DNA of 64,000 bases from Candidatus Omnitrophota bacterium (GCA_028280285.1 JANQMA010000017.1:64993-128992); one strand, 5' to 3'. Numbered from the stretch's first letter, positions 3,565 through 21,579 are shown. Made by a program: numbers and translations. The notes: generated from the letters alone by a model not told the origin.

Positions 3565-3689
3565 CCGTAACCGGCACCGGGTGCGGGCACACCGGTTAGC
3601 TAAAGGTAACTAGGTGGGAAATAATCTATTTCCTACTTGTTATTTATCCCACTATATTGTATACTTACTTAGTGAGACAGGAGGGCATT

Positions 3690-3992
3690 ATGATAAAAAA
3701 AAGTGTTATTAAAGATTCCCATTTTCGGGAGGTTACCGAAGTAAAGACGGATGCCAAAAACCGGATTACTTTAGGAAAAAATCTCAAATGGCCTAAAGTG
3801 ACAAGTTATGTTGTCTACACCAATGATCTTGGACAAATTGTCCTTGATCCGCAGGTGTCTATTCCTGCGTACGAGCAATGGTTGTTCAAAAATAAGAAAG
3901 CCGCCAAAATGGTGTTTGATGGGCTAGAAGATGCAAAGAAAGGAAACTTCGTCGACGCTCCCGAAGATTTTTCCAAGTATTTAGATGATTAA
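3690..3992 (+). CDS. Small protein, putative antitoxin partner of the downstream RelE/ParE-like gene
   Basis: 100 aa ORF; SD AGGAGGG 4 nt before ATG 3690; stop 4 nt before next ORF start (operon arrangement antitoxin-toxin); no family recognised. Confidence 0.3.
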   Translation: MIKKSVIKDSHFREVTEVKTDAKNRITLGKNLKWPKVTSYVVYTNDLGQIVLDPQVSIPAYEQWLFKNKKAAKMVFDGLEDAKKGNFVDAPEDFSKYLDD

Positions 3993-3995
3993 TTT

Positions 3996-4295
3996 ATGTT
4001 CGAGTTAATATTTACTAAAGCGGCCAAAAGGCACTTAAAAGAAATTGAAAAAGATAGTTCAAAAGCAGGATTGTGTCGGCAGGTCAAAAAATCACTCGGA
4101 TATCTTCAGACAAATCCCAGACACCCTTCTTTAAATACTCATCCGTATGAGGCAATCGACAATCCTATTAATCTTCGCGAAAAGGCCTTTGAGGCTTATG
4201 CGCAAAATAACACACCGTCGGCGTATCGTATTTTTTTCTGTTATGGGCCTGATAAAAAGCAGATTACAATCATTGCCATAACCCCGCATCCATAA
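3996..4295 (+). CDS. Putative type II toxin, RelE/ParE superfamily
   Basis: 99 aa, basic; C-terminal pattern YRIFFCYGPDKKQITIIAITPH resembles the YRIIY..d...v.Il.I.hR signature of RelE/ParE toxins. Confidence 0.45.
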   Translation: MFELIFTKAAKRHLKEIEKDSSKAGLCRQVKKSLGYLQTNPRHPSLNTHPYEAIDNPINLREKAFEAYAQNNTPSAYRIFFCYGPDKKQITIIAITPHP

Positions 4296-4361: not shown

Positions 4362-7300
4362 ATGATTATTAAAAGCAGATTAAAAGTTATTATTAATAAA
4401 GTGCTTGTGTCTGTGGTGTTGACGGCTTTTATTATGACAAGCATTGTGCCGGTCAATTTTGCCCAGGCGCAGGTGACACCACCCATGGCCTTGCCGGCGG
4501 TAGGCACACTGGTGCCGTTATCAAGCGCGCACACCCCTGTTCATTTACTTGGCCTTACCGTGAGTCCCGATAATCCGCTTGCCTTTGATTTTTTGATCCA
4601 CTCGGGCGACAATCCGCCGGCCGAACAAACCCTCAAACAAGAAGCCGATACCCTGATCCGTTATTTTTTGGCCTCTTTAACAATCCCTGAAAAAGACATG
4701 TGGGTCAACTTATCCCCGTATGAAGAGGACCGGATCATCGAGGATAATTTTGCCCGGACTGCGATGGGCCGCGATCTGTTGGCAGAGGATTACATGTTAA
4801 AGCAGTTGACGGCATCGCTGCTTTATCCTGACGGCGATATCGGCAAAGTCTTCTGGCGGCGTGTCAGGCAAAAGGCCGAGGCGCTGGGCCTTAAAGATAT
4901 CCCAACCGAAACCTTTCATAAGATTTGGATTACGCCGGAGTCGGCGACTGTTTTTGAAGATGGACAGACGGCGTATGTGGTGGAGTCGAAGCTTAAGGTC
5001 TTGCTGGAAGAGGATTACTTAGCGTACAGCGAACAGCGGATAGCGAATAGTAGTGCTCAGCAATCAGTTGATAACTCTCTAAACGCTAAACGCCATACGC
5101 TAAACGCTGATTTAATGCGCGAGGTCATCATTCCCGAAATTACGCACGAAGTGAACTATGGCGCACACTTCGCCCGCCTGCGTCAAATCTATGGCGCGAT
5201 GGTGCTTGCCACCTGGTTTAAACAAAATTTAAAACAAACGCTGCTCGGGCAAATCTACGCCGATCAAAGCAAAGTCAAAGGCATTGATACAGTTAAAGAG
5301 GACGCCCACAAGCGTATTTACGCCCAGTACATCGATTCAATTAAAAAAGGCGCCTACAACCTGATTAAAGAAGACTATGATCCGGTGGCCCAACGGATCG
5401 TTGCCCGCAAACACTTCTCCGGCGGTTTCGCACCTGATGCCGCGGCCATTACAACCGTTAAGACGGAAAGCCTGAATGCTGCCGATGTAACCACGCAAAA
5501 ACAAATCAACGACTTTGCCTTTAATTTTGATGCGGCTGTTGCGCAAAAGGAAGTTTTTAACGTACAGACATCATTAGCCGAATCTAAAGAAGACCCCGCG
5601 GCGATGAAGGGAGTTATTGATTCAGCAGTAATGAATGTTCAGCAACAAGATGGTGACTACATCACCCAGCTAGATAAGACGGCCGATGCAGCGGGTTTGA
5701 GCCGGAAAATTCAGGATCTACGCACAATGCCGACGGCCACATTGCAGGCCTATTTTAGTATTCTTAAGTCTGACTTTATGACGGGGCGGACAAAATACAC
5801 GTATCGTCAGCATTCGAGTATCCTTAGCGAATACTGGTCCAAACTGTCTGAACATGAAAGTGAGCTGAGTAACGAAAAGTTTTATTTACAAGATCGTGTA
5901 GGCAGATTTCTTGATGTGACTAAATATCTCGAGGATCTGGATCAAAGAGGTATAAAAAAGATTAAATTAAACGGGGTTGATATTTTTCATCATCTATCCA
6001 ATCTAAGCGAGCCTGGATTGAATCAGGAGAAAATGCTCGAGGATATTTTACAAAGCTTTGCCGAACTTAAAATGATTCGTCCCCGCACTGATCCTGATCA
6101 AAATAAGATATCCAACAGCATTGAATTTAAAGAACGTGAAATTAAACACATTTTCCTCGCCAGTCCTGATGTCAACCAATTTGCTCCTCAGGAGCCGCTT
6201 GTGTTGAGTGTCTTGCTCCATCAGGATGGGGATTTTGAGATTGTTGAGGGTTTTGATATTACAAATGAGGATAGCCTGCGTATTGTTCTTGAAAAAGGAC
6301 AGAGGCCGTCTTTTCATTACCCATTGCCGTCAAGGTTAGGGGATTCTATCCGGATCAGCTTAGACCCGAATGATGAAAACAGTTTGGTCTTTGATAGGCT
6401 TGAGGCCCCAACCGAGCTTGTCCATTTTGCCTTAACGGCCGATGCAGCGAGTTTGCATCATTCCGCGCGCGGGAGAATGCGGTTGTCTCTCGATGACTTT
6501 AGTCTATATACCAGCCTATTAAACGAGAATCTGCAAAGCAAATATTTGTGGCATATTATTATTCAATTGGCTCGTCATGATCTACTAACTAAAGGGTTTT
6601 GGAGTAATGTGCTTGATTTTTCTGAGTCTTTTATTGCATATGACGGCCAGGAGTTATTTAATATGTTGAAAGAATCTTTTACCAAGAAGGGTCATCTGTA
6701 TCCTCAAGAATACCTTGCCCACGCGATCAACTCTTTAGCGACCATCAAGCGCCTTGCGCATAATCACTCTAATACATTTGAATTTAAACCGGGCGAGACA
6801 CAAAACATTGTTATGAAGGTCATCGGTAATGATAAAGTTGAGCCCTTTGTCCTGACAGCCCGGTATGACCGACAAAGGCAACAGTTTGCTTTTAAACGCC
6901 CGTCTTCTAATACAGAAGAGGTTGTGTCAATGAATCGCAAACAAATCTTTGAGATTCTGGATTTTTATAGGATTGAGTTGCGTCCTAGGTTGTCAGAGGA
7001 TGGCTGGACAGCAATGCTTGAGATGACTAATGCACACACTTATAGAGAGTTGTTTACCTATGCATTTACGCCACAGTATCCTCTTGTGTCGGTTCCATCT
7101 GGATTACTTTGGGATTATCTGACCTATCTCGGCCAAAACAAACGTAAACTTTATAAAACATTAGGGATTTTCTCTGTCAATGTTTTACTGCCGGTTGTCT
7201 TTGAGGGCCAGAAGTTAAAGGATATTAATTTTGATGGAAAAAATTTACTCTCCTTTGATGTTCGATGGCCGCAATATCAGTTTAGGCCGTTAATGGACAC

Positions 7301-10300
7301 GCTGAAAGAAAAACAACTACATGATCTCAAAAGGAATAGCAATTCAGCTGTTGATACCTACGTGTTTTCTAAAGAAGTTTTTAATAAGTTGGGAATAGTA
7401 AACAGGAGCGATGATTTTCATGCTATTTTTGACACATTGAATAGTCTGCGTTTTGTCAATCACCACCAAAGCAGTAAACAGCATGCACTTATTCCTGTTT
7501 CAGACAAACCAAAGAATGTGCATATTATCCTGAGAGAAAATGAGAACACTCAAAAAGAATTAATGGATGCCACCGTGAGTAAGCTGGCCGATGATTTGCT
7601 TAGCCTAAGTTTTAACGATAAATCTGTAACGGATCTTGTGATTATTCAGGATCAACAAATACGTTTGACAATAGATAACGAAATTACGCTTATTTTACGG
7701 CAGATTAAGGGGAACCTTCAGATTACATACATAACCAATGATCAAAGCATGCGCGATATCTTTCGCTTCACAGTTGGCTTTGATTCGGCGAGTTTGGGCA
7801 AGGAGAAGGATCTTGTTGGTGTGAAAGGGGTTGATGAAGATGCAGAAAATATTACCATCAGTCAATTTTTAGAGAATGCACCAAATACCATGGTGGCGGC
7901 CTTTAAAAACGGGTTTAAAAATAGAACTGATCATTTTGGACTTTTGAAACGTTTAAATAATAATGAAATGACAGCCAAATGGATACTTATGGCCGACAAA
8001 GTTCTGAGAGAGACTGCAGGGGCAGAAATCACCTACAGAGATTTTTCCTTAATAGACTTCTTGAAACAAAAAGGTTTTTCAAAATTGAGGCGTAATACGA
8101 TGTTTAGCCCCGATTTATTTATAACAATGGATGGAAAAAAGTATATTGGTGTATACGTCGGATCAAAAGGACTAAAAAGCACATTGGGTCAATTTTCTTT
8201 GTCTTCGGTTAAACGAAAGTGGTATAAGAAAATTTTACAAATGGATGGCAGCGGATTGGAAGGTATTATTTTATTAATGGATACTGATACGCCTGAATAT
8301 CCTGTACGTGAATTAACACCTATTAATGAGATGAAGGGTTTTTATGCCTTTCCATTATTTGAGAAGGCATTAATAGAAGCTCATCATAGGAAAGATGATT
8401 TAATAGGGTTTCCAAGCCTTTTATATGCTCATAATTTCAATTATGCTGAATCTTATCTTAATGATCTTATTTCGGATGTGCACAATTCTATTGCATTAAT
8501 TTCACGGATTAATTATTTCAGTCCACAGGAGCTGGCAGATTTCAAAAAGGATGTTGCCTATTACGAAGCTCGTGCACAGCAGTATTTAAATTATGCCAAA
8601 GAGGGTTTTAAAGAGCATCGAAAAGTTTTTGATAAATATATTAAAGAGTATAAACAAAGAAAAATTCCGGGTATTTATAAATTAGAAGAAATGATATTTA
8701 CGCGCAATATAGATATAGGTAATGTCCTTGTTACAAGTTTATTTGTATTGCAGACAGCTAAAACTTTAGAGCAGCTGGGATTTGATATTATTGAGTTTGA
8801 AACTAATTTAAATAGATCCACTAAACCGGACATTATCGTGGCAAAAAATGGCAGTAAATATATTGTAGAAGCTCATTGGCGTGAAGTGAGCCAATCTAAG
8901 TTTTTCGAAAGAAATAGTAGGGGATTTAAAAAGCCTTCTCAAAAGAGACGTTATAGACAGTATGTAGATGCGCATTCTGATTTTAAGGGCGTTATTCTGT
9001 CTTCATCATATCGATTTCAAACTCAAAAATCTAATGTAATCTTTAAGCATAAAAACGATGACAAAAGGACAAAAAGAATATTTATAGATATAAGTGATGA
9101 TCAGGATTTAATCGCTAGGAATATTGAACAAAGTTTTGATGAAGAAAGTTTAGGGTATGTAGACCATCAGCTGCTTTCTGATCAGAAGAAAGACGGGTTT
9201 TCTGATTATGCATCCATGTCTGTGATAAACGAAAACTTCTTAAAAGCAAATTTGAAGCCAGGTAAAAGATTAGAAAGTTTTAAGGATAGATTAGCTGATT
9301 ATTTAAATGAACAAATCCTCTTTGTTCAATCAGCAAAATCACGTGAAAAAATTTATGATCAAGTTGATCTGTTTTTAAGTGGTATTGATAGTTTGATTGA
9401 GGAGTATTTTTTAGACTCAATTGATGTGGATGAAATGTTAAGCGAATATGGGAAGGAATTAATGGCAGATCTGATGGCAGCAGGTGGAGTGAAAAGTGTT
9501 CAAGAGGCTGCAGTGCTCTTACAACGTCTTTTGGTTGTTGCTTTTGAGATGAATCATCGTTTTCTTGAGTTTAAAAATAATAATATTAAAGACGCTGATA
9601 CGGCGAAAAGGTATATTGATCAGTTTCTTAATCCAGGTATTTTAGAGCTCGCACGTAGGGCAGAACAGATGTATAAAAAATTAAAAGTGGCTTATGACAA
9701 TTTTTCCGTTATGGAGGAGTCTTATGTTCAAAGGAGAGGCTCAAATGAATCATTTGAACTGATGATAAAACGCTTTAAAGATGCGTTTTTTTCTGAATAT
9801 GGTTCGGAAACAATGCAGAAGGCTAAGGCAAGTTTTTCTAAAGGCGGCGTACTGCAAAAGCTTAGGGATTTTAAGTTTTCAAATGACAAACTTACTCAAG
9901 AGCAATTAGATGTACTTATAGAGTATGAGACAGTAGTGGATGAGATTGATCAAACGTTGCGTCCAATTTCTAAATATTGGGAGATTTTAATCACATTTTA
10001 TAATGACTTTGCTAACGATGTGGGAGCACAAGTAATACCGCTTAATGAAGGCCCATCCGTTTCCGTAAATTTCAACTTTCATAATCAATTTTCAGGTTTA
10101 AGTGGGGAAAGAACTAGTCTTAACGACGCGGCGGGGTTAAGTAAACAGGCGCAAGCTATGACGAAACTATCTCTTGGCCCATTGGAAAGACATTTAGAAG
10201 TTCTTGAAGCCTTTGAAGAGAAAGGTGTTTTAACATACTCTCTGGAAAATTACATGGAAGTTATCACAATGGGGGTAAACCCCAATAAAATAGGGGATTT

Positions 10301-13300
10301 GCTGGCAGCACCATTTTATCAACAAACTGATCATTATTGGGTACGAAACTTTACTCAATTTATTTATGAAAGTGTGGGATTAGAAGAACGTCAATCTGAT
10401 ATTCGATTTAATGCAAAGGAAATTTTTGAAAGGGTGAAATCAGATAGGCTTCTTGATAAAAATATGATAAGTGCTATTTTGAACGATTTGGCTGAGTTTA
10501 AATATATTAAAAATCCCAACTACGCTGATTCTAAAAAGACATTTGCTGATATTGAGTTTAATCCGGGAGAATCAAGACAAATTTTCCTTGTTAACCCGTA
10601 TTCGCTTAATATTTATGAAACTATCACTATTTCACATGATAAGAACTCAGGTAGTTTTGCAATTGCTCCACACGCTAATTATTTTTCTGATGCGGAAAAT
10701 GGGCAAGATGTCGAAAGGGCTATTCTTAAAAAACGGGGTAAAATATCTCATGAATATCGTTTATTGAGATCCCAAGAATTGGGTTATTCAATCCGTATTA
10801 GTTTAAATAAAAAAAATGACAACGCGTTGACGTTTGGAGGTGTCCACCCTAAAAATGGATTATTGATTTTTTCATCTGTGTTTGATGAAGCAAGTTTGGG
10901 GCAGGAGGATGAACCTGCCGACCCGGCGGTCTTGAAACAAAAAGATATTATGCAATTAGCGCATTTCGATCCTGATTTAGTTGCAAGGATTAAAACCAAT
11001 CTTTTTCAGGTATCAGAGGTGCCGGTGATTCGTGATAATCCCGCATTTTCCGTTCCTTTTTCTAAGGAGGATGGGTTTTTTGAGGGGATTAATGATTTAA
11101 AGGCATTGATGTACGCTGTCCAGAAGATGAAGGATTCTCTTGAGAACATAAGCCCGAAGTTAAATGCCGAAGGTGTGGGGCAATTATCCCCAACGATAGC
11201 ATCCATACAAAACGATTTCGATTTTCTTGTTGATGTGCAAAACAGATTGCGCTTGCATGAAGGGGTTACAGATACCATGTTTGTTTATAAAGAAGGGTTG
11301 CAACGGTTAATGGAGATTGTGAAATTTGACAATAGAGGCGATTTGTACGTTGTATACGCGGGTTTAGTCATGACGTATTTGCAGTATAAATATTCTAATA
11401 AAATAATTTACAATGATTTCGATCCAACAGATTCGTTCAAACTTAAAAGATTTTTTGATGTATATTCTATGGCTGACCGGTTTGATTTTCCTGCAACAGT
11501 GGTGCAAACCATTAACGGTATCGGCTCCATTGCAGATAAAATAAAAGTGGTACGCGCACTCAACGCGTGGGCCACCATGCGAACCCTGGCAAAAGGCGAA
11601 CAGACGCCGGTGTATTTTGAAACAGAAACCGGTGAACAAATTAAAACCGTTTATCTCAAACCGATTTCTTTTGATGCTTCAGAGCGCGACAAGCTTTTAA
11701 TGATGGAAGTTAAACGTGATCAATCGAACGTTTATTCTGTTCGCCAAAAGGGAAAAGAAAACTGGCAAGTCATCGAGCAGGATGCCCCGCGGACGTTTGG
11801 CTTAATGGGCGTGCATGTGACTTTTATGATTCAAAAGAAAGTGCTGCATATCGAAAATAATAGCCGGCATATTTTTATAGCTAGTATTTCAGAATCTATT
11901 AATGGAAAGACCTATGATGATGCGATGTTGTCTGAATATGCGGCACGAAAAATAATTTTTAGTGCAAAAGATTTTCTTATTATGAATGAGATTCTTAACC
12001 AGGATTATCCTGATTTGGCCAAACGTCACCGGTCTATGCTGTTTGCGCTTGTGCACGGCACGCCGTTAACTGATATTTGGCTATCTCGTCCGAAAAGATT
12101 TGTTGAACCTAACGCTAATTTCATTGTCGAAGAAGCAAGAGTGCGTGCTGCAGAAAACAGACCGTTTAATATTAGTCCTATAGGCGCAAAAATATATCTT
12201 GGTGTTGATGATAATGAGAAGAAAAAGATCAATCGCAGTTTGGTAGCGGATGTTTTAAATACGTGGGGAACGCTTATTCGCATTCATACTCAAGCAGCGT
12301 ACAGCATTCCTGTGTTTATGGAAGAAGGCGAAACACGCCAACTGTATGTTGTTAACAACGAGACCAAAGAATTTATTAAATTACAGATCAATCAGATGCC
12401 TGGTTATTTTGAAGTTATAGATATAAGCAATGGTAAAGAAGGATATGGTTATTGGGTGTTTCCTGATCATGATACCGAGAACGGAGACAATAAGATTTAT
12501 TTTGCCAATGGAAAAGACTATATCATATTGGATGAGGATCAATTTGATCAGTTATCGGTGATTAATGAAACCAATGCTGATTTGACAGCCTTTGCGGTCG
12601 ATCAAGCAAGTTTGGGCAAGGTAGTTAGAGCTGAAGAGGGTCGTTATGTGATTCAGAAAAATGGGGTTAATGTTTATTCAGATGTTACTGAAAGAGACAT
12701 GATTGACGTTTTTTTTAACAATACACCCGATTTGGAGCGACCAGTAGCTGAGGTGGCATTATATCGAAATAGTCGGGAGGATTATTATATTTCTTGGTGG
12801 GGCGGTTGGGCTATTAATGAAACATCTGTGAATGATCAGTCACAATGGTTTGATTGGAATACAGATAAATCACTTGCTGTTCGAAAAAATAAAATTTTAT
12901 ACAAATATGAATTGGAATCTAAAATAAATAAACTTATTGAACAGCGTTCAGATAGCCGAGAACCTCTCTATATTTTAGATTGGGGGTTTGGGGATGGAAC
13001 TGCTATTGATGAATTAGCACAAAAATTTGAACATATCGAAAACTTGTATTTTATTGGCTATGGAATGACACATGATAGTAAATGGAGTACTTTTGGAGAA
13101 ACTTTTAAACGTAAAAATATAATTATTTTTGATCATATTTGGAAATTAGAAAAACATTTAAAGAAAATTTTGAAAGGTAATAAGCTGGCTCTTGTTTATA
13201 GTCATTTTGGTTTAGCTCACTTATTAAGGGATTATCCAGATGATGCCAGGGAACAAATAAAAACTTTAATGAAGTATATGAAAAATGGAGCATCGCTTAT

Positions 13301-16300
13301 AACCAATTACTATTGGAATGATAGCCTTCCTAGTAAATTTGCAAAAGGATTTAGAAAGAAAACTATTAGCCCAAATACATTCAGTGCGTGGGCGATTGTG
13401 GAGATATTTAATGAAGACGCAGCAAGTTTAGGGCAGGAGGATGAATCTACCGACGCGGCGGGATTAGATATGCTGGCTTATATTATGTCACGGCGTGTGT
13501 TTGATCCGGATATTGCTAAAGAACTTGAAATATTGCATGCCCAATGGGCTAATATCGTTGATCAATTTATAAATACAAGTAAATATAATAAAAAATCTCA
13601 AAGACTGGTAGGGCCGACTGGTTGGACAATGTTCAAACGTTATGGTTTTAATAAAAATAAGGAACTGTATTTGGAATATTTTCAACGTCTGGGGGATGAG
13701 GGAGTCATTGATAGTTTTTCAATAAAGGTTACTGATGGGAGGTTAAAATACTTTGCTCCTGGATTGCATCACCATTCAGCTAGTTTTTTTGGTCAAGAAT
13801 ATGCAACAGATAGTGCGCCTCCGCGTTCTGGAAGTTTTGTTGTGCGCGTTTATGAACCTTTTTCGAAGGAACTAGAGGAAGAGATTAGAAAAATTTTTGG
13901 TGAATTTTTGGCGCAATATGGCAGGACTACTGGATTTGAAAATTTTGTTAAAGATTTTGATGAAGGGGTGATGCCAACAGTTGGTTCACAAATCAAGAAA
14001 AATCCCGGTGAGGCAGAAAATATTAAAAAGGCCTACAATGATGTACGAGATATACTTGTTCGAAAAAACAAAGACTACTGGCAAAAACTTCCGCGTCTTA
14101 TGGCAAGATTACAGCAAATACTTATAAGCGGTATTTATGTAAAAGAAGTAATTCATAAAGATGAAAAAAGGTTTAAGGATGCCCCGCCCGCCCGGATTTA
14201 TGCGTATGGAGATATGGGGTTTGAAGATCCGGTTGCATTTATTCAACATTTAAATAAAACAACACCACTGGTAGCGAAACTACTCTTAGGGGAAACATAT
14301 CTTGATCCAACATCGGGTATTGATATTAATGATCCTAGGATAGCAGAGGTTGTTGAAGAGCAGCCGTACTCTGAACAAGGCAAGCCTATCGATGAGGCGA
14401 ATTTGGGCAAGACGGGCGAATCTACCGATGCAGAACCAGAAAGCTTTGATGAAGAGATAAAGGAAGATAAAGATCAGGCGGCGATAACGGCAGTGGATGT
14501 TCATGGGACGCGTGTGCCAGGCGGTGGTATTATTTGGACAAGGATGCCGGCTCAATATTTTAAAGTTCTTCGGTTGCGTAGAGGAGGGAAAGCATACCTG
14601 CGCGAGTCTTCTATTAAGGGTTTAGTTTTGGAGAACGCTTTAGAACGTTATCGGCACAGTGATACTCCCTTACAAAAGGTTAATAATCATTTAGGAATAG
14701 ATTTGGTTGATGAAATTGTGCAATTAGATCAGTTACGTCAACGTGAGAATGAGCCAAACCGTGTGATTACTGTTTTAGATTGGGGTGGCGGCAGTATGCA
14801 GGCCATTAAAGATATTTTAAACGAATTAAAGGCTCAAAATATTAAAAATGTTCGCTTGATTGGTTCTGGGCATAGTACGTACCTGGAGTGGAAGGATATT
14901 CCGGAGGGGATTGAGGTTATTTGGGATGTGGCACAGAAGCTTCATTTATATATTGCTGAGGGCAGTATTGATATTATTTACAGTCATTATGGGATGTATC
15001 ATTTAGATGAACAATTACCGCAGTATTTGATGTATTTAGAGAAACTTCTTAGTCCTCGAGCAAAAATTTTGATATATCCTTTGGATGGAGATTTATCTGA
15101 GCAGTTACCAGGGTGGAAGTTAGAGATAAAAAGAAAGCATAAGAATATTTCTCGGTTGGATGTTAAGACACATAAGAAAAAATTTTGGTCTGGATTGATT
15201 TCTCGTATGATTTGGCCTGCTTCACAAAGAGTATCAGTCCGTAATTTCGCACCATTTAATTATAGTTATGAATTTACTCCGCCTTCTCGAATATCAATTA
15301 AATCGAAAGGCTCTGATCCGCTTGAGGGCCTTATGATTTCATCTTGGAGTGATACCCCAAAGGAGCGCATCATTTTGCCTAAAAGAAGTATGTCAAGTTT
15401 GCGAAGACGGGTGGGTGGACGTGATTTTGCGAGCCTGGAGCGGAAGGATGAGGCTCAAATCGACGCGGCGGGGTTGGATTTTAATGGAAAATTCTCGATG
15501 GCCAGTTATGGAAATAATGAAACTGATGTGATGAGATTAAATAGAATTACGAAAGGTAAAAGGTTGATTGAGAGAGTGCAACCGCAGCACTTTCGTTTGA
15601 ATAGTGCCGGTGTTAATATTTATTCGAGTTTACAAGATGAGGAAATAATAGACATCCTTTCGATATTAGATAGTGAAAAGATTGCTCGGATAAGACTTAA
15701 TAATCGAAATACTACGACAGACTACCACATTAGCTGGGAAAAACCATGGCGTATGAATCGTACACCACTTGATGCGGTTGATATGTTTGCGGGTCTTAAA
15801 TTTTATGAATTGGAGTCGAGAGTAGAAACTATTATTAATAATCGCCAGGATGACGCTGAACCGATTTATATTTTTGACTGGGGTTTTGGAGCAGGGACCG
15901 CGTTAAAAGAGTTGTCTGAGAAATTTGATAATATTCCTAACATATTTTTTATCGGATTTGGTGACGCTTATTATGAAGATTGGCATACACTGCCGAGTAA
16001 TGTCATTATTATTTACGATCAGGCTTGGAGGCTAGAGGAGCATTTATCAAAAATTCTTAAGGGGCATAAAATTGATCTGGCTTTTAGTCATTGGGCGTTA
16101 TCTTCACACTTTTTAGGTGATTATTTTGGCCCAAAAAGAGTATATTTTTTAAGACTTATGGATTTTCTAAAACCTGGTGCTTCCTTTGTTATTGATGCTC
16201 TGAATGATTCCGGTGCAGAGTTGGGCATTAGACGGGATTTTAATGTTCAAAAAATACCAGTGAGCAACTATTATTTCGGCGATATATTTGAAGTAAAAAA

Positions 16301-19300
16301 TGAAGATTCTAGGAGTTTGGGTAAGGAGGTTGCGGATCAAACCGATGCGGCGGGATTGGGTGAAAGTGTTCAGAATTCAGTGTTCGGTGGTCAGCCGGAA
16401 GAAACTGATGCGGCGAATTTCAATGAGTATTTATTTTTATCACCTGAATTAACGTTGGACTATTTTGTTGCCTTACTATCAAACCTTGGAGATAAGACTG
16501 TTTTATCACTTACAGTATATCTTTTAGCTCCGTATATTGGTGCAGCACAATTGACAGATGAGTTTAAGTTAACAAATCCCTTAGCTAATACTTTATACGA
16601 CGTTGTAGTAGCTCAATTAAAAGAAATGTTCGGTAAGGACGAATTATACCCTATGGATATGAGAGGCTATTTGGATCAATTGCCATTGTTAAGCAACGAT
16701 ATTGGCAAGCATGTTTTGGAATCTCTAGGTAGTGTTAGAGCGATGGTCCATGAGTCTGAGCTTAAACATCAACCACCAATATCAATCGGTGTTGGCCAGA
16801 GCAAAAAGCTTATTTTGGCGGAGCGTTATTATACTGATCAGACTGATATGACGACTATGCATTTGTTGGATGTAACACGACTTTCCTCGAATCAATTTAA
16901 ATTGAAGGCAGAGGGGATAGATAGGCAAATTGATTTGAAGCAAGAGAGTTTAATGGGTTTAGAAATGAATTATTTGGATGAGCAAGGGCAGCCTTTTACA
17001 ATGTCAGTTAAGATGCTGTTTTCGAATAATGGTTTTCAAATTTATTATACCAATGATAACTTGGATTTTAATACTATGATCTTTGCGCTTGATTATGAAT
17101 TGATTAATTTTGTTAATGAAGTTGGTGAGCCAAAGCCTTTTCAAGATAATGCGAGTTTGGATAAGGAGAATGAGTTCCAAACCGACGCGGCGGGGTTGGG
17201 GTCTAGTGATCAGTGGTCCCGCGGTCAGTCGGAGAAATTTGATGCAGCGCGTTTAGATAAACAGCAGCTTAAAAAAATATCAAATAAAGCTCTTGGGAAT
17301 ATGTTTTGGAATGATTTTTATCGGGCATTGCTACTTTTGTTTGATAAATCGATAACATTTTATTCGCAGACAGATAAAGGGATTAAACCTTATGTATGGC
17401 ATAAACTAGTTGAACATGATCCAAGTGTTAATTTATCACTATTTGCCAAGATAGCAGTTCCAGGTTTGGATAACGTACGAGTTATAGACTCGAAATATGA
17501 TTATGTTATGAGTATATTAGACAGTTTTAATCCTTCTGCTGAATCTTTTACAAAATCAATGGAGAGCATCAAAGAGATGCTAGAAGATGATAATCAGCAG
17601 TTGGGGCTGGCTGAAAGTAAGCCGATTGCGCATAGGCATTTAATTCGTAGAGCGCTTTATTATTTTACACGTGAACATGATGAAGCCCGAGAGAATGAAA
17701 AGAAGTTGGTAGAGGTATTTGATTATGGAGCCAAAATTATCAATGAAATCAAACGGCGTAATAATATTGCCCAAAAAACATTAAAATCTCATGGAGTAAT
17801 TGTTGATGCCTCTGGTGCGGCAAAGCTGAATAATGGTGATCGATGGGCAGCCCGCCCTGCTGCTTTGCAGAAAAAACCGGAAACTCGCGTGGTCAGTGAT
17901 CAAAAGAAAGGCGGTGACGCGCTGGATTTGAGTAGAGAGAAATCTTTACAAATGTATCCACGAAAAACCTTATCCAATTTTGATTCGATTATTCATGTGT
18001 TATTTGAAGGATACACCCAAAAATTTCAATCTGGGCAAAATCCAATATTATGGAAAACACATGCAAGAAATTTATTGGAAAACGTAAGTTATTATGTGAA
18101 TGAGCATTTTATTTATCCTGAAGTCGCGATGGATACGTTTGTTAATAAAAATAAAGAATTTATCGAAAAGCTAATTGATGAAGGGAATGAACGCTATCTA
18201 TATTCTGCATTTTTAATTTATAAAGGTTTAGCCACAATGGCGGCTAAAGATTTACGTAACATTGCAGATAGTGATAGGTTGTTTGCTCAGCCACGAAAGA
18301 ATCAGCCGGTTCGAAGCTTTAGAAATCAAGCGCATAAGTTGGCTCCTTTGCGCAGGGAATTAGAGCGATTACAAGGAAGATATGTGGAGTTGCGAGAATG
18401 GGCTGAGTTCAATTTATTTTTCAATGATAAATTTCAGAAAGAATCTCAAATTGTTTATGCTTTTGAACATCATACGCAGAATTTAATTAATGTCGTTGGT
18501 GAGGTTGGTTATGATGGAGCGCTGACCTATGGAGAGGTTGATCAGTATGCTATTCAATTGCAAGGCGATGCTTATATTTTAGAAGGTGTTGTGCGTGTAT
18601 TACATGATATTAAGCTTAAGGTAGAAAGAGACTCTGCGAGTTTGGGTGAGGAGGTTGAGTTCCAAGCCGACGCGGCGGGGCTGGATTTAAAAAATTTAGA
18701 AGAAATTTCTGTTGATGAGATGAAAAAACTATTTAACGCTCTATTTTCAGAAGTTTTTTATGCTTTGTTTGAGGGTACTCTCTGGTCTCATGAATACGAA
18801 AATTATAATGAGATTGTTGAGTATGATTGGGAGAGACACAATGATTTGCATAATGTAAAGAATATTAAAGTTAATATCAATAGTGCTATGACTCTATTTG
18901 CTTTGAGGCCCAACTCGAATAAAGAAATAGACATGGCTCTCAGATCAATTGATAGATTTAAAAATGAACTACGTTTGATTGATTACACGAACCGAGAAAG
19001 TGAGTTAGATAGTTTGTTGGATCAAATGGAGGGATACAAAGATTTTGGTTTAAGTGAAGATGAACCAATTGAGTATGCATTGCTTAAACCACGATTTTTT
19101 TATCAAGCATTGCGTGCAGATCCTAATGCAGATGAGAATAGAATTAAAATGTTTACCAAAGTGAACAATTTAAAGTCTGTTATTAATGAATTTAAACGTA
19201 GACTAGAAATTGAAAAGAAAAATTTAGTTGTTACAGGGTCTGAATCTACCGATGCAGCGGGGTTGAAAAGTATTGATAAGCAAGAGTTGCGTAATATGAC

Positions 19301-20180
19301 CGATGGAGGTGTTGGTAAAACATTACGCGATCATTTTAATGAGTTTTCAAATTTGTTTGAAGCGCAAGTGTGGTCGCCTGGTTTGTATACATTGGCTGTT
19401 AGAGATTTTTCATGGACAGAAATAGTAGAGCATCATAGAGCAGATATGCTGAAAAGTATAGATGGTATTATGAATGGATCACTTAAAAATTTTGAAAATA
19501 TGTCGCAGTTAAAGAATTTTTTATGGTTGGTTTATAATTTTATGACGCAGATCAATATTTATCGCAATTTAGCTTCTTTCGATGAACTATTTGAAGAATT
19601 TTTAGAAAAGATGAAGCAATATAGCGACCGGGGAAAAGAATTTGAGAATCCTACAACATATGACCTTCGAGAAGTTAGATTGATTTATTATGTTTTAAAA
19701 GAAGATGTTAATGCAGAAGAAAACAGAAAAAAATTATCTGATACTTTAGAAAATATTAAAATAATTGTTGAAGAGATTGAACATAGAATTGAGCTTAAAT
19801 ATGAATCATTGAAAAAAAATGGTATGGAAGCTGATAAAGAACTAGATAAAATTTTTGAATCTGTAGAAGATGATTTGGGAGCTTTGACGAATATTAAGAG
19901 CTTCGAGCTTCGAGCTCCGAGCTCCGAAGTAGGTGGTATCGACCTTGACTCCAAACACCTTGACCTTCAAATCAAACGTGATGGGCGTGGTGTGGCGCTG
20001 CCGGTTCACATGCAAGATATTCCGAATATTCAGATCGATGGGCTTTATCCGGTGATTATCAATATCACGCCGGTGACCACCGTGCCGCTTATTTTCAGCC
20101 AAATCCTTGGGGAGCAAGGGGATACAGATCACGCCTCAGTAACAGATTATCCGCAGTTGTCGTATGCCATTAAAGAGTAG
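4362..20180 (+). CDS. Giant secreted/surface protein (5272 aa), modular, with repeated ASLG...DAAGL linker motif and three SAM-methyltransferase-like Rossmann modules
   Basis: Single uninterrupted ORF 15.8 kb; N-terminal signal peptide (hydrophobic core + AQAQV); 12 in-frame linker repeats; repeated modules with (I/V)LDWG(F/G)G(D/A)GT motif I-like sequence. Confidence 0.85.
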   Translation: MIIKSRLKVIINKVLVSVVLTAFIMTSIVPVNFAQAQVTPPMALPAVGTLVPLSSAHTPVHLLGLTVSPDNPLAFDFLIHSGDNPPAEQTLKQEADTLIRYFLASLTIPEKDMWVNLSPYEEDRIIEDNFARTAMGRDLLAEDYMLKQLTASLLYPDGDIGKVFWRRVRQKAEALGLKDIPTETFHKIWITPESATVFEDGQTAYVVESKLKVLLEEDYLAYSEQRIANSSAQQSVDNSLNAKRHTLNADLMREVIIPEITHEVNYGAHFARLRQIYGAMVLATWFKQNLKQTLLGQIYADQSKVKGIDTVKEDAHKRIYAQYIDSIKKGAYNLIKEDYDPVAQRIVARKHFSGGFAPDAAAITTVKTESLNAADVTTQKQINDFAFNFDAAVAQKEVFNVQTSLAESKEDPAAMKGVIDSAVMNVQQQDGDYITQLDKTADAAGLSRKIQDLRTMPTATLQAYFSILKSDFMTGRTKYTYRQHSSILSEYWSKLSEHESELSNEKFYLQDRVGRFLDVTKYLEDLDQRGIKKIKLNGVDIFHHLSNLSEPGLNQEKMLEDILQSFAELKMIRPRTDPDQNKISNSIEFKEREIKHIFLASPDVNQFAPQEPLVLSVLLHQDGDFEIVEGFDITNEDSLRIVLEKGQRPSFHYPLPSRLGDSIRISLDPNDENSLVFDRLEAPTELVHFALTADAASLHHSARGRMRLSLDDFSLYTSLLNENLQSKYLWHIIIQLARHDLLTKGFWSNVLDFSESFIAYDGQELFNMLKESFTKKGHLYPQEYLAHAINSLATIKRLAHNHSNTFEFKPGETQNIVMKVIGNDKVEPFVLTARYDRQRQQFAFKRPSSNTEEVVSMNRKQIFEILDFYRIELRPRLSEDGWTAMLEMTNAHTYRELFTYAFTPQYPLVSVPSGLLWDYLTYLGQNKRKLYKTLGIFSVNVLLPVVFEGQKLKDINFDGKNLLSFDVRWPQYQFRPLMDTLKEKQLHDLKRNSNSAVDTYVFSKEVFNKLGIVNRSDDFHAIFDTLNSLRFVNHHQSSKQHALIPVSDKPKNVHIILRENENTQKELMDATVSKLADDLLSLSFNDKSVTDLVIIQDQQIRLTIDNEITLILRQIKGNLQITYITNDQSMRDIFRFTVGFDSASLGKEKDLVGVKGVDEDAENITISQFLENAPNTMVAAFKNGFKNRTDHFGLLKRLNNNEMTAKWILMADKVLRETAGAEITYRDFSLIDFLKQKGFSKLRRNTMFSPDLFITMDGKKYIGVYVGSKGLKSTLGQFSLSSVKRKWYKKILQMDGSGLEGIILLMDTDTPEYPVRELTPINEMKGFYAFPLFEKALIEAHHRKDDLIGFPSLLYAHNFNYAESYLNDLISDVHNSIALISRINYFSPQELADFKKDVAYYEARAQQYLNYAKEGFKEHRKVFDKYIKEYKQRKIPGIYKLEEMIFTRNIDIGNVLVTSLFVLQTAKTLEQLGFDIIEFETNLNRSTKPDIIVAKNGSKYIVEAHWREVSQSKFFERNSRGFKKPSQKRRYRQYVDAHSDFKGVILSSSYRFQTQKSNVIFKHKNDDKRTKRIFIDISDDQDLIARNIEQSFDEESLGYVDHQLLSDQKKDGFSDYASMSVINENFLKANLKPGKRLESFKDRLADYLNEQILFVQSAKSREKIYDQVDLFLSGIDSLIEEYFLDSIDVDEMLSEYGKELMADLMAAGGVKSVQEAAVLLQRLLVVAFEMNHRFLEFKNNNIKDADTAKRYIDQFLNPGILELARRAEQMYKKLKVAYDNFSVMEESYVQRRGSNESFELMIKRFKDAFFSEYGSETMQKAKASFSKGGVLQKLRDFKFSNDKLTQEQLDVLIEYETVVDEIDQTLRPISKYWEILITFYNDFANDVGAQVIPLNEGPSVSVNFNFHNQFSGLSGERTSLNDAAGLSKQAQAMTKLSLGPLERHLEVLEAFEEKGVLTYSLENYMEVITMGVNPNKIGDLLAAPFYQQTDHYWVRNFTQFIYESVGLEERQSDIRFNAKEIFERVKSDRLLDKNMISAILNDLAEFKYIKNPNYADSKKTFADIEFNPGESRQIFLVNPYSLNIYETITISHDKNSGSFAIAPHANYFSDAENGQDVERAILKKRGKISHEYRLLRSQELGYSIRISLNKKNDNALTFGGVHPKNGLLIFSSVFDEASLGQEDEPADPAVLKQKDIMQLAHFDPDLVARIKTNLFQVSEVPVIRDNPAFSVPFSKEDGFFEGINDLKALMYAVQKMKDSLENISPKLNAEGVGQLSPTIASIQNDFDFLVDVQNRLRLHEGVTDTMFVYKEGLQRLMEIVKFDNRGDLYVVYAGLVMTYLQYKYSNKIIYNDFDPTDSFKLKRFFDVYSMADRFDFPATVVQTINGIGSIADKIKVVRALNAWATMRTLAKGEQTPVYFETETGEQIKTVYLKPISFDASERDKLLMMEVKRDQSNVYSVRQKGKENWQVIEQDAPRTFGLMGVHVTFMIQKKVLHIENNSRHIFIASISESINGKTYDDAMLSEYAARKIIFSAKDFLIMNEILNQDYPDLAKRHRSMLFALVHGTPLTDIWLSRPKRFVEPNANFIVEEARVRAAENRPFNISPIGAKIYLGVDDNEKKKINRSLVADVLNTWGTLIRIHTQAAYSIPVFMEEGETRQLYVVNNETKEFIKLQINQMPGYFEVIDISNGKEGYGYWVFPDHDTENGDNKIYFANGKDYIILDEDQFDQLSVINETNADLTAFAVDQASLGKVVRAEEGRYVIQKNGVNVYSDVTERDMIDVFFNNTPDLERPVAEVALYRNSREDYYISWWGGWAINETSVNDQSQWFDWNTDKSLAVRKNKILYKYELESKINKLIEQRSDSREPLYILDWGFGDGTAIDELAQKFEHIENLYFIGYGMTHDSKWSTFGETFKRKNIIIFDHIWKLEKHLKKILKGNKLALVYSHFGLAHLLRDYPDDAREQIKTLMKYMKNGASLITNYYWNDSLPSKFAKGFRKKTISPNTFSAWAIVEIFNEDAASLGQEDESTDAAGLDMLAYIMSRRVFDPDIAKELEILHAQWANIVDQFINTSKYNKKSQRLVGPTGWTMFKRYGFNKNKELYLEYFQRLGDEGVIDSFSIKVTDGRLKYFAPGLHHHSASFFGQEYATDSAPPRSGSFVVRVYEPFSKELEEEIRKIFGEFLAQYGRTTGFENFVKDFDEGVMPTVGSQIKKNPGEAENIKKAYNDVRDILVRKNKDYWQKLPRLMARLQQILISGIYVKEVIHKDEKRFKDAPPARIYAYGDMGFEDPVAFIQHLNKTTPLVAKLLLGETYLDPTSGIDINDPRIAEVVEEQPYSEQGKPIDEANLGKTGESTDAEPESFDEEIKEDKDQAAITAVDVHGTRVPGGGIIWTRMPAQYFKVLRLRRGGKAYLRESSIKGLVLENALERYRHSDTPLQKVNNHLGIDLVDEIVQLDQLRQRENEPNRVITVLDWGGGSMQAIKDILNELKAQNIKNVRLIGSGHSTYLEWKDIPEGIEVIWDVAQKLHLYIAEGSIDIIYSHYGMYHLDEQLPQYLMYLEKLLSPRAKILIYPLDGDLSEQLPGWKLEIKRKHKNISRLDVKTHKKKFWSGLISRMIWPASQRVSVRNFAPFNYSYEFTPPSRISIKSKGSDPLEGLMISSWSDTPKERIILPKRSMSSLRRRVGGRDFASLERKDEAQIDAAGLDFNGKFSMASYGNNETDVMRLNRITKGKRLIERVQPQHFRLNSAGVNIYSSLQDEEIIDILSILDSEKIARIRLNNRNTTTDYHISWEKPWRMNRTPLDAVDMFAGLKFYELESRVETIINNRQDDAEPIYIFDWGFGAGTALKELSEKFDNIPNIFFIGFGDAYYEDWHTLPSNVIIIYDQAWRLEEHLSKILKGHKIDLAFSHWALSSHFLGDYFGPKRVYFLRLMDFLKPGASFVIDALNDSGAELGIRRDFNVQKIPVSNYYFGDIFEVKNEDSRSLGKEVADQTDAAGLGESVQNSVFGGQPEETDAANFNEYLFLSPELTLDYFVALLSNLGDKTVLSLTVYLLAPYIGAAQLTDEFKLTNPLANTLYDVVVAQLKEMFGKDELYPMDMRGYLDQLPLLSNDIGKHVLESLGSVRAMVHESELKHQPPISIGVGQSKKLILAERYYTDQTDMTTMHLLDVTRLSSNQFKLKAEGIDRQIDLKQESLMGLEMNYLDEQGQPFTMSVKMLFSNNGFQIYYTNDNLDFNTMIFALDYELINFVNEVGEPKPFQDNASLDKENEFQTDAAGLGSSDQWSRGQSEKFDAARLDKQQLKKISNKALGNMFWNDFYRALLLLFDKSITFYSQTDKGIKPYVWHKLVEHDPSVNLSLFAKIAVPGLDNVRVIDSKYDYVMSILDSFNPSAESFTKSMESIKEMLEDDNQQLGLAESKPIAHRHLIRRALYYFTREHDEARENEKKLVEVFDYGAKIINEIKRRNNIAQKTLKSHGVIVDASGAAKLNNGDRWAARPAALQKKPETRVVSDQKKGGDALDLSREKSLQMYPRKTLSNFDSIIHVLFEGYTQKFQSGQNPILWKTHARNLLENVSYYVNEHFIYPEVAMDTFVNKNKEFIEKLIDEGNERYLYSAFLIYKGLATMAAKDLRNIADSDRLFAQPRKNQPVRSFRNQAHKLAPLRRELERLQGRYVELREWAEFNLFFNDKFQKESQIVYAFEHHTQNLINVVGEVGYDGALTYGEVDQYAIQLQGDAYILEGVVRVLHDIKLKVERDSASLGEEVEFQADAAGLDLKNLEEISVDEMKKLFNALFSEVFYALFEGTLWSHEYENYNEIVEYDWERHNDLHNVKNIKVNINSAMTLFALRPNSNKEIDMALRSIDRFKNELRLIDYTNRESELDSLLDQMEGYKDFGLSEDEPIEYALLKPRFFYQALRADPNADENRIKMFTKVNNLKSVINEFKRRLEIEKKNLVVTGSESTDAAGLKSIDKQELRNMTDGGVGKTLRDHFNEFSNLFEAQVWSPGLYTLAVRDFSWTEIVEHHRADMLKSIDGIMNGSLKNFENMSQLKNFLWLVYNFMTQINIYRNLASFDELFEEFLEKMKQYSDRGKEFENPTTYDLREVRLIYYVLKEDVNAEENRKKLSDTLENIKIIVEEIEHRIELKYESLKKNGMEADKELDKIFESVEDDLGALTNIKSFELRAPSSEVGGIDLDSKHLDLQIKRDGRGVALPVHMQDIPNIQIDGLYPVIINITPVTTVPLIFSQILGEQGDTDHASVTDYPQLSYAIKE

Positions 20181-20330
20181 CGGCGAAGCAGTGCCTCTGC
20201 CCTAAATAGTACCAAGTTTTGGGTCGACACATTGGTCGGCTTGTACCTATCGGTGTTGTGAAAAATACTTGCCAAATTTTACACTACATTATATTATTAT
20301 ATAAGATATGTAGTGTAAGGAGTGTGGACT

Positions 20331-20636
20331 ATGATTATTTTACAAGAGATTTTAGCTGATAGCAAAAAGCATTATCAAGAAGTCCGAAAGAAAATTCTCA
20401 AAAATCTTTCTTCGCTTCCCCAGGGGAGTGTCAAAAAACGTAAGATTTCTAAGCGTATCTATTATTATCTCCAACAGAGGGTCGGTTCTAAAATTATTCA
20501 TAAATATTTAGGTAAAGAAGAGCCGGAGGAGTTAATTAAAGAGTTAAAATTACGTAAGTCTTTGAAAGCTGAGCTTAAAAAAGTCGATGAGGCTTTAAAG
20601 GTTATACAAAAAGTCCAAGGCAAAAAGTATGGATAA
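20331..20636 (+). CDS. Small basic protein (cassette 1 gene A), possible antitoxin/regulator partner
   Basis: SD AAGGAG 9 nt upstream of ATG 20331 (ORF-track GTG 20322 less likely); 8-nt overlap with the following gene; lysine-rich C-terminus. Confidence 0.4.
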   Translation: MIILQEILADSKKHYQEVRKKILKNLSSLPQGSVKKRKISKRIYYYLQQRVGSKIIHKYLGKEEPEELIKELKLRKSLKAELKKVDEALKVIQKVQGKKYG

Positions 20637-21309: not shown

Positions 21310-21358
21310 TAATTTTATATAATGTAGTGTAAAATTTTTTTATAAGTTTGTTGACAGC

Positions 21359-21472
21359 GCGCCGGTGACCACCGTCCCGCTTATTTTTAGCCAAATTCTT
21401 GAAGATCAACAGGATACAGATCACGCCTCGGTGACGGATTATCCGCAGTTGTCGTATGCGATTAAAGAGTGA
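21359..21472 (+). pseudogene. Displaced duplicate of the 3' end of the giant gene (last ~37 codons, no start codon)
   Basis: ~90% nt identity to 20068..20180; encodes APVTTVPLIFSQILEDQQDTDHASVTDYPQLSYAIKE* versus native PVTTVPLIFSQILGEQGDTDHASVTDYPQLSYAIKE*; 8 synonymous vs 3 nonsynonymous differences. Confidence 0.7.
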
Positions 21473-21579
21473 TTGGTGATTTAGAAAGTATATGATATTA
21501 TAAAATTCTAGTGGCTATTCCTCCCCAAAGTATGCTGTAACTTCAAACTATTCGATTTCCCTTACAATATTAATTTTTG

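Follow-up and report, generated by a model that had tools for sequence, protein, structure and literature searches.

An apparently undescribed Omnitrophota protein family with a fixed head and tail and interchangeable enzyme modules, viewed from a 5272-residue member

Giant genes of the Omnitrophota have been linked to an episymbiotic or predatory life (PMC10066038; bioRxiv 10.1101/2023.11.21.568195), and the giant proteins described from this phylum are the natural comparison for the gene considered here, which occupies positions 4362-20180 of a 64,000-nucleotide stretch of DNA from a Candidatus Omnitrophota bacterium (GCA_028280285.1 JANQMA010000017.1:64993-128992; "the window" means this whole stretch) and encodes a protein of 5272 amino acids (aa). 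The "Archaeovorins" (West-Roberts et al. 2023, bioRxiv 10.1101/2023.11.21.568195) are Omnitrophota proteins of at least 30 kaa (thousand amino acids), and the "multi-enzyme metabolic cluster" class (Nielsen & Lui 2026, bioRxiv 10.64898/2026.06.07.730766) contains proteins of at least 10 kaa. Both have tens to hundreds of transmembrane helices, C39/S8 peptidase and SecA-like domains, and conserved neighbours of PilZ type and resembling a type 2 secretion system (T2SS); the Archaeovorin domain set comprises glycosyltransferases, glycoside hydrolases, C39/S8 peptidases, NUDIX, SecA-like domains and methyltransferases (West-Roberts 2023). Post-translational cleavage is suspected for these Omnitrophota giants, and the 2023 paper gives the cleavage points as unknown (bioRxiv 10.1101/2023.11.21.568195).

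The 5272-aa protein belongs to a very large and apparently undescribed family of Omnitrophota proteins in which a fixed head and tail, here called the N-cap and the C-cap, enclose interchangeable enzyme modules. A term search of the 2023 and 2026 bioRxiv texts found no mention of these caps, nor of the D-x-A-M delimiter and the purge of cysteine (Cys) described below. Common to the two settings are the phylum, the signal peptide and the strings of methyltransferases, glycolytic enzymes, PPDK, kinases, HEAT and TPR domains. Unlike the Archaeovorins, the giant protein is 5272 aa long, has no internal transmembrane helix and no C39/S8/SecA-like domain, and is encoded without a T2SS/T4-pilus-like locus upstream or PilZ genes downstream. 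Nor is the Archaeovorin domain set found in it: no Pfam match is significant, and a divergent methyltransferase fold, recognised by profile, is all that corresponds.

Three better-known kinds of secreted protein are built along similar lines. The MARTX toxins of Vibrio lack a Sec signal peptide and leave the cell by type 1 secretion, whereas the giant protein bears a signal peptide of Sec type. The likeness lies in a size of up to ~5200 aa, conserved ends, a strain-variable domain mosaic and release at short inter-domain sites (PMC5218395, PMC6315884, PMC4453568). However, MARTX termini are glycine-rich and RTX-type, and here neither a GGxGxD motif nor an RTX Pfam match is found; and MARTX modules are released by an internal cysteine protease domain, whereas the giant protein lacks any Cys. 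TpsA/CdiA proteins begin with a Sec signal peptide, which precedes a conserved N-terminal domain of ~300 aa for targeting and then a very long Cys-poor passenger, and in CdiA the variable distal part is demarcated by a short VENN motif that is also a recombination joint. The giant protein recalls these and autotransporter passengers in its signal peptide, N-terminal conserved domain, Cys-poor chain and motif-demarcated variable part; unlike them, it has no Haemagg_act/two-partner-secretion (TPS), beta-helix repeat or autotransporter barrel match, and its N-cap is modelled by AlphaFold2 (AF2) as alpha/beta and not as a beta-helix. No TpsB (Omp85-type) gene occurs in the window flanks or upstream of 79 related loci. 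Finally, cargo proteins of the type 9 secretion system (T9SS), to our knowledge a system of Bacteroidota/FCB, carry a Sec signal peptide in front of arbitrary cargo and, behind it, a conserved sorting element of ~60-100 aa, which is a beta-sandwich C-terminal domain. The giant protein shares the Sec signal peptide, the varied cargo and a conserved C-terminal element, but aa 4801-5272 give no Por_Secre_tail/TIGR04183 match and the C-cap is predicted to be non-globular. It resembles MARTX, TpsA/CdiA and T9SS cargo in logic, and has none of their molecular hallmarks.

A protein family with constant ends

The gene and the parts that tie it to the family are as follows.

4362..20180, plus strand: giant gene, 5272 codons plus stop, ATG start, translated without an internal stop
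4362..4469, plus strand: signal peptide, aa 1-36, with a basic n-region, a hydrophobic core at aa 14-32 and the site FAQA/Q (the slash marks the predicted cut)
4470..5429, plus strand: N-cap, aa 37-356, conserved family domain, …HPxNPLxFDF…WVNLSPYE…DYxLKQLTAS…RKYFSGG
5436..5699, plus strand: junction of N-cap and cargo, with the first delimiters PDAAAI (aa 358-363) and TADAAGL (aa 440-446)
19917..20111, plus strand: C-cap, aa 5186-5250, EVGGIDLDSKHLDLQIKRDGRGVALPVHMQDIPNIQIDGLYPVIINITPVTTVPLIFSQIL, which holds the hydrophobic stretch at aa 5231-5249

The open reading frame (ORF) is real and intact. A database protein, P0001 of one NCBI contig, has the identical sequence, and the longest ORF in the other frames across 4362..20180 is 97 aa. 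The N-terminus reads MIIKSRLKVIINK-VLVSVVLTAFIMTSIV-PVNFAQA/QV, with the n/h/c layout of a Sec signal peptide; of the residues at the cleavage site A36/Q37, the first is invariant and the second nearly invariant in relatives. A hydropathy scan finds two hydrophobic segments only, both terminal (aa 14-32 and aa 5231-5249). Searched in nine overlapping chunks (~850 aa) against Pfam and NCBIfam, the protein gives no match below E ~0.05, all listed matches lie far below the curated cut-offs, and no chunk significantly matches an Ig, cadherin, RTX or autotransporter model. No tandem DNA repeats are found in the gene; its internal DNA repeats are the linker segments only (30-64 nt, 63-87% identical), and self-comparison gives three small paralogous module groups, not the tandem beta-sandwich repeats of a repeat adhesin. 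An earlier, sequence-only reading of this DNA had proposed a single giant ORF that opens with a signal peptide and contains repeated modules and conserved linkers, with no adhesin-type Ig/cadherin repeats, and all of this agrees with the results above. It had also called the protein largely alpha-helical or mixed; of the two caps, on which this was examined, the N-cap is modelled as alpha/beta and the C-cap as extended and unstructured.

The family emerged from a database query with aa 1-5000, which returned P0001 itself and 370 others, of which 119 were listed. These relatives are 2.76-7.6 kaa long and each covers 6-11% of the query; those with a named source come from Candidatus Omnitrophota/Omnitrophica, except two labelled "hydrothermal vent metagenome". 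By blastp, the segment aa 1-~400 is common to 119/119 of them (44-54% identity, with the match beginning at residue 1-77 of the relative), the segment aa ~5175-5250 is common to 80/119, and almost nothing is shared between the two. The C-terminal similarity appears although the database query excluded that region. When the relatives are compared with each other, their caps are conserved and their interiors unrelated; the interior of the giant protein alone (aa 441-5160), searched against 5.8 billion proteins, recovered only the 5272-aa protein itself.

A profile made from the N-cap alignment and searched without a word index against 1.84 billion representatives (50% identity) matched 8,366 proteins at E<=1e-3, of which 6,682 reach E<=1e-30, and in all 150 listed matches the N-cap begins at or within ~65 residues of the N-terminus. 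Of 125 newly recovered representatives, 72 proved complete, with a C-cap as well as the N-cap, and these measure 746-2770 aa (median ~1530). The 5272-aa protein is thus the long tail of a mostly non-giant family. The earlier description mentioned rare giant genes linked with episymbiosis or predation in uncultivated phyla, and the protein does belong to such a candidate phylum, Omnitrophota; it is not, however, an isolated giant. In a genome scan with one genome per species there are at least 590 family loci, and the 79 listed are nearly all in Omnitrophota metagenome-assembled genomes; the few with other labels are metagenome-assembled too. Genomes have several copies, with at least six in the isolate OFTM38. 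Twelve of the 79 fetched loci are tandem arrays, with two or three N-caps 3-6 kb apart, which would be a substrate for fusion into multi-cargo giants. Such arrays were noted at L004, L047, L010, L023, L014, L077, L024, L037, L036 and others, with up to three N-caps in 10 kb.

The giant protein carries both ends in the family arrangement, a signal peptide and N-cap at the N-terminus and a C-cap no more than ~55 aa from the C-terminus. The last N-cap motif reads HFSGG where the family has YFSGG. The AF2 model of the N-cap has low confidence (predicted local distance difference test, pLDDT, 57), and its profile has no match among PDB sequences. The C-cap consensus is GGIDLNPxxLxLQIKxDGxGxPLPxxxQ…IxGFxPVIINIxPxxNLPxLLG; an acidic tail comes after it, in many cases with the ending …LSLLN. 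By motif the C-cap is found in ~110/120 family proteins, and its match always ends 0-55 aa from the C-terminus. An AF2 model from 43 sequences (pLDDT 73) has essentially no secondary structure over the motif, which fits a linear signal or docking peptide and not a globular domain. A PEP-CTERM or LPXTG sorting signal was considered for the C-cap and rejected, since the hydrophobic stretch precedes an acidic, not a basic, tail. A profile search with the C-cap returned mostly fragments at contig ends, plus some free-standing small ORFs on long contigs. One of these, P0209 (L080 8001-8366, contig JBFMEN010000067.1), is a 121-aa ORF that consists of a DSAMF delimiter and a complete C-cap without a signal peptide; it has no adjacent cap-family gene, and no N-cap match occurs across the fetched 16-kb locus. 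Further small C-cap-only ORFs of this kind sit on long contigs, and they could be displaced gene ends or spare cassettes.

Cargo modules, delimiters and cysteine

Between the caps, the giant gene is divided by short linkers into the following modules.

5700..6440, plus strand: module 1, aa 447-693, paralogue of module 4
6459..7781, plus strand: module 2, aa 700-1140, no detectable relatives
7809..10121, plus strand: module 3, aa 1150-1920, no detectable relatives
10140..10883, plus strand: module 4, aa 1927-2174, paralogue of module 1
10884..10934, plus strand: delimiter/linker, DEASLGQEDEPADPAVL
10929..12599, plus strand: module 5, aa 2190-2746, internal DDAML at aa 2519
12624..13415, plus strand: methyltransferase-fold module A, aa 2755-3018, motif I ILDWGFGDG, paralogous to B and C
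13467..14390, plus strand: module 7, aa 3036-3343, no detectable relatives
14409..15422, plus strand: methyltransferase-fold module B, aa 3350-3687, VLDWGGGS
15477..16304, plus strand: methyltransferase-fold module C, aa 3706-3981, IFDWGFGAG
16422..17144, plus strand: module 10, aa 4021-4261
17256..19841, plus strand: modules 11-13, aa 4299-4756, 4775-4962 and 4969-5160, with a common repeated segment
6441-6455, 7782-7799, 10119-10139, 12600-12617, 13416-13466 and 14391-14441, plus strand: other linkers, first part
15423-15476, 16305-16358, 17145-17198, 18630-18683 and 19245-19265, plus strand: other linkers, second part

In the relatives, Pfam identifies PPDK/PEP-utilising enzymes, GAPDH, PGK, enolase, TIM, aldolase, hexokinase, phosphoglucomutase, malate synthase, isocitrate lyase and acyl-CoA dehydrogenases; many methyltransferases, protein kinases, HATPase and GNAT domains; and receiver domains, RelA/SpoT with HD, the RNA polymerase alpha C-terminal domain (CTD), AAA, WD40, HEAT and TPR. 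Short complete members carry a single cargo, such as hexokinase, a methyltransferase or DUF218; in the 908-aa P0306, for example, the N-cap is followed by hexokinase at aa 403-808 and then by the C-cap. The cargo of the 5272-aa protein consists of three divergent modules with the fold of methyltransferases that use S-adenosylmethionine (SAM) and of ~10 modules without detectable relatives, among them module 3, for which JGI metagenomes also gave none. Fragment blastp of the protein against itself defines three paralogous groups: aa 442-698/1922-2179, the pair of modules 1 and 4 (24-37% identity, E down to 6e-11); aa 2717-3035/3430-3604/3686-3999; and aa 4301-4498/4860-4977/4974-5158, segments of modules 11-13 that are mutually 22-34% identical.

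The methyltransferase-fold group is the only interior part with relatives, which lie in P0002, P0003 and P0036. A six-sequence profile of this group (modules A-C) matches BamL (7e-5), PMT2 (0.012) and AprA MT1 (0.035) among PDB sequences, Methyltransf_25 matches two members of the alignment at 3e-4, and a Methyltransf_36 match is weak; motif I of class I SAM-dependent methyltransferases (I/V-L/F-D-W-G-x-G-x-G) is present in A, B and C. In phmmer searches of the PDB sequences, neither the whole interior nor one methyltransferase-like module returned anything usable. A recurrent beta-rich domain of ~110 aa before each linker (F-x-x-G-E-x-x-x-I…) was also considered and dropped, as a hidden Markov model of seven hand-picked segments scores only its training segments. 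In its 5' part, where the conserved N-cap is encoded (window 4001-6000), the gene matches the chromosome around it in G+C (0.45), while the cargo interior (8001-20000) has 0.33-0.40, against ~0.42-0.47 in the flanks; this drop is consistent with fast-evolving or foreign cargo sequence.

The giant gene contains 10 or 11 sites in which D-x-A-S-L-G is followed by 6-8 residues and then by T-D-A-A-G-L, and each of its methyltransferase-fold modules is flanked by such delimiters. This exact motif is absent from the relatives. In an unbiased tetrapeptide count over 120 family interiors, however, DAAM is the most enriched (103 observed against 3.2 expected, 32-fold, in 42/120 proteins), followed by DQAM, DSAM, DRAM and DKAM, so the family delimiter may be written D-x-A-M-[LVI]. 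It recurs every 200-400 residues in many members. The giant protein has one canonical site only (DDAML, aa 2519), and from position and spacing the D-x-A-S-L-G variant is judged to be homologous to it. In P0051 and P0022, 0/28 delimiter sites fall inside eight Pfam domain envelopes (estimated chance ~0.01), and in this set a receiver domain at aa 3703-3818 is bracketed by sites at 3693 and 3824. Many relatives have a site just after the N-cap (aa 351-436), and another precedes GGIDL of the C-cap by 6-10 aa; the bipartite linker (D-x-A-S-L, ~7 residues, D-A-A-G-L-D) therefore looks like a C-cap beginning cut short (D-x-A-M-L, ~7, G-G-I-D-L). LapG-type cleavage at a di-alanine (TAAG), which DAAG and DAAM recall, was considered as a model and dropped.

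The linkers are also constant in their synonymous codons. Their second Ala is GCG in 10/10 cases, against 0.26 gene-wide, and their Ser is AGT in 8/9, against 0.26; the preference for GCG extends to relatives in other genomes, where this codon encodes the first Ala of DAAM in 16/19, against a background of 0.28. This hints at a nucleotide-level constraint on the linkers (a recombination or RNA feature) besides the peptide motif. Linkers such as those at 13416-13466, 15423-15476, 16305-16358, 17145-17198 and 18630-18683 were in addition seen as G+C-rich islands in the A+T-rich gene, with the fixed codons GAC/GAT GCG GCG GGG TTG.

A second family-wide signature is the near-absence of Cys from the mature chain, for which the giant protein has 0/5272 residues. 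The 20 other ORFs of the window average ~1.1% (P ~5e-26), a figure that sets aside one 1425-aa protein with 160 Cys. Across 244 family proteins, Cys makes up 1.73% of the signal-peptide segment, 0.021% of the mature N-cap and 0.055% of the remainder, with a family-wide median of 0.06%, and the onset of the purge coincides exactly with the predicted signal-peptidase site. In 6/8 GAPDH-bearing relatives checked, the catalytic Cys of ASCTTN is among the 2-7 that survive; dispensable Cys has probably been lost, then, while the cargo was under catalytic selection, and the pattern suggests that the cargo enzymes are probably active. Cys scarcity also marks those autotransporter, TpsA/two-partner-secretion and type 1 secretion passengers whose transit of the outer membrane takes place in the unfolded state. 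More generally, Cys exclusion is a recognised trait of exported proteins that avoid mis-oxidation (PMC2823432). It is not general to the exported proteins of this organism, because the 1425-aa Flp-pilin-like protein (45693-49970, plus strand), with four DUF4215 repeats, is 11% Cys.

The N-terminus of this DUF4215 protein (…KSGQNIVEYVLILATVV…), with G/QNIVEY…, looks like a Flp/Tad-type class III (prepilin) signal, and the protein may be a giant Cys-rich pilin-like exported protein. Its gene adjoins one for a ParA/AAA_31-type ATPase (43489-44775).

Probable export, possible processing and competing explanations

Taken together, these features are best read, at a probability of roughly one half, as those of a Sec-exported modular enzyme carrier, the chain crossing a second barrier unfolded and the delimiters serving as processing and/or recombination joints. 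The chain would leave the cytoplasm via Sec through its cleavable-type signal peptide, and would be kept free of disulfides for an unfolded or loosely folded passage of the outer membrane or of a partner cell's envelope, with the caps as constant targeting, anchoring or translocation elements. The delimiters could then be protease sites that free the modules after export, and could also be recombination joints at which neighbouring single-cargo genes (~0.8-2.8 kaa) were fused into a 5.3-kaa giant; the cargo enzymes might work on the surface or in the periplasm of the producer, or inside host or prey cells. The parts of this proposal differ in strength. Export by itself is well supported and quite probable, cleavage at the delimiters is a tentative suggestion with somewhat less than an even chance, and we infer that the final destination of the cargo would lie outside the cytoplasm of the producer. 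Deletion from delimiter to delimiter between neighbours is an attractive origin for the giant, given the codon-level conservation and the tandem arrays. The sequence-only reading had left the function of the protein unknown; it can now be narrowed to a putative export or delivery carrier for enzyme modules, three of which have the SAM-methyltransferase fold.

Several results weigh against this carrier. No secretion or processing machinery is found in the window or upstream of the 79 loci, and no transporter or protease neighbour is conserved in the 6 kb upstream of these loci, where the best cluster covers 6/79. A D-x-A-M site is lacking in ~40% of the 120 members and in more than half of the 72 complete ones, so any cleavage at delimiters would not be universal. 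The cargo enzymes of relatives need ATP, NAD, SAM or CoA, which are not expected outside the cytoplasm. Moreover, the end of strand beta-2 in modules A-C reads IGYG, IGSG and IGFG, with the usual acidic residue apparently replaced by Gly in the six-sequence alignment; any binding of SAM by these modules may be atypical. The N-cap model, at a pLDDT of 57, is too uncertain to assign this domain an activity.

The main rival, although on balance unlikely, is that the protein is exported by Sec and stays uncleaved as an envelope-tethered multi-enzyme scaffold, with the C-cap stretch and/or the N-cap as anchor and the delimiters as mere hinges. The signal peptide and the Cys purge would be expected here too, as would the confinement of hydrophobic segments to one at each protein end and the lack of delimiters in many family members, and most long Omnitrophota proteins are predicted at the membrane or outside (bioRxiv 10.64898/2026.06.07.730766). 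A pure hinge, however, would need neither an invariant D-x-A-M core nor fixed synonymous codons. The C-cap stretch makes a poor anchor, being interrupted by proline, followed by an acidic tail and predicted by AF2 to form no helix; and the Cys-rich exported protein of the same genome indicates that periplasmic or extracellular residence alone forces no purge.

A bolder version of the carrier is also unlikely, with perhaps one chance in a handful in its favour: that the two caps are the signal pair of an unrecognised export or delivery route for thousands of different enzymes of cytoplasmic type, catalytically competent and drawn from glycolysis, gluconeogenesis, kinases, methyltransferases and alarmone synthetases, possibly into host or prey, with D-x-A-M-[LVI] as the release site and recombination there building the giants. 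If true, it would supply a concrete mechanism for the origin of giant genes in Omnitrophota.

Less probable still is a contact-dependent effector array of MARTX/CdiA type, whose caps would dock on or insert into the envelope of a host or prey cell and whose modules would enter the target cytoplasm and rewire or drain its metabolism. The layout of conserved termini, mosaic centre and inter-domain sites is MARTX-like (PMC5218395, PMC6315884), and Omnitrophota have host-dependent or predatory traits (PMC10066038). Such an array would resolve the cofactor paradox, its hypervariable interiors would be those of polymorphic effector systems, and the cargo is of cytoplasmic type (glycolytic enzymes, kinases, RelA/SpoT, RNA polymerase alpha CTD and methyltransferases). 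Yet housekeeping-type glycolytic enzymes would be odd toxins; the protein has a Sec signal peptide of the kind that MARTX toxins do without; no RTX repeats, cysteine protease domain, TPS domain or toxin/immunity pair is found; and no translocation machinery was found at the locus or upstream of the 79 loci.

The cofactor dependence and cytoplasmic type of the cargo would also suit a cytoplasmic polyprotein held at the inner face of the membrane by an uncleaved N-terminal anchor, its modules acting in the producer's own cytoplasm. This is improbable: the basic n-region and the conserved AxA/Q site predict translocation, a 30- to 80-fold Cys depletion that starts at the exact cleavage site has no cytoplasmic rationale, and the gene 5 kb downstream encodes a PPDK of the ordinary kind, which contains Cys and lacks caps.

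An assembly artefact or a decaying pseudogene might be suspected for a protein known from a single contig, with an interior devoid of relatives and lower in G+C than its flanks, but this is the weakest explanation and improbable, since the frame stays open for 15.8 kb of AT-rich DNA (a chance run of 5272 codons at this composition being effectively impossible), Cys codons are absent over the whole gene, and a family-typical N-cap and C-cap stand in phase at its two ends. An assembly chimera or a hidden frameshift splitting the gene, which the sequence-only reading had named as the way in which it could be wrong, is very unlikely, because both family-typical ends are in order and in one frame and there is no long or near-identical internal DNA repeat.

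The cap family is both larger and more tractable than the giants, with members that start at ~750 aa, and it offers three testable signatures: the constant caps, a delimiter of five residues on either side of domains, and a Cys purge that begins at the signal-peptidase site yet, in several relatives checked, leaves the catalytic Cys of GAPDH in place. These argue that ultra-small, host-dependent bacteria may export whole central-metabolism enzymes in active form; they also give candidate processing sites for proteomics and minimal secretion constructs (the hexokinase member, for example), and they suggest how giant genes could plausibly have arisen from tandem arrays.

Flanking genes and the 3' end

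The elements that adjoin the giant gene are these.

3657..4295, plus strand: upstream toxin-antitoxin (TA)-like pair, 111 aa and a 99-aa ParE-like protein (Pfam ParE_toxin E=0.003, below the gathering score)
20068..20178, plus strand: last 111 nt of the gene, which recur downstream as a direct repeat (reference copy)
20322..22909, plus strand: three downstream cassettes, 104 aa with NTP_transf_8, RelE with HTH, and DUF6290 with ParE (Pfam)

The TA-like genes on the two sides confirm the earlier claim that the gene is flanked by TA modules. Its further claim, that the gene is an integration target, also finds support: the 111-nt gene end recurs after the first two downstream cassettes, as a copy with 89% identity at 21360-21470, after the 104-aa ORF and NTP_transf_8, and as a degenerate copy at ~22256-22324, after RelE/HTH. 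The arrangement suggests serial site-specific insertion of small cassettes at the 3' end of the gene, each of which seems to have brought or regenerated the gene end, as do elements with gene 3' ends as their integration sites. Pfam annotation of the window shows no integrase gene.

The near neighbours are panB and a lipid A acyltransferase gene upstream and, past the TA cassettes, genes for a class II aminoacyl-tRNA synthetase and for PPDK downstream; these and the remaining window, which encodes a sigma-70 factor, PNPase, FtsK, RodZ, a radical-SAM/TRAM (MiaB-like) enzyme and RibBA-type domains, look like ordinary chromosome. The genes for the aminoacyl-tRNA synthetase and PPDK enclose, at 24581-24958 (plus strand), the gene of a 125-aa "23S rRNA-intervening sequence protein"/bAvd-like protein; no reverse transcriptase or rRNA gene was noticed nearby. 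Farther downstream, at 37287-40284 and 41066-42424 (both plus strand), arylsulfotransferase-like and sulfotransferase genes adjoin one for an AlgE-type (Alginate_exp) outer-membrane barrel with a signal peptide, a locus that may export a sulfated polysaccharide.

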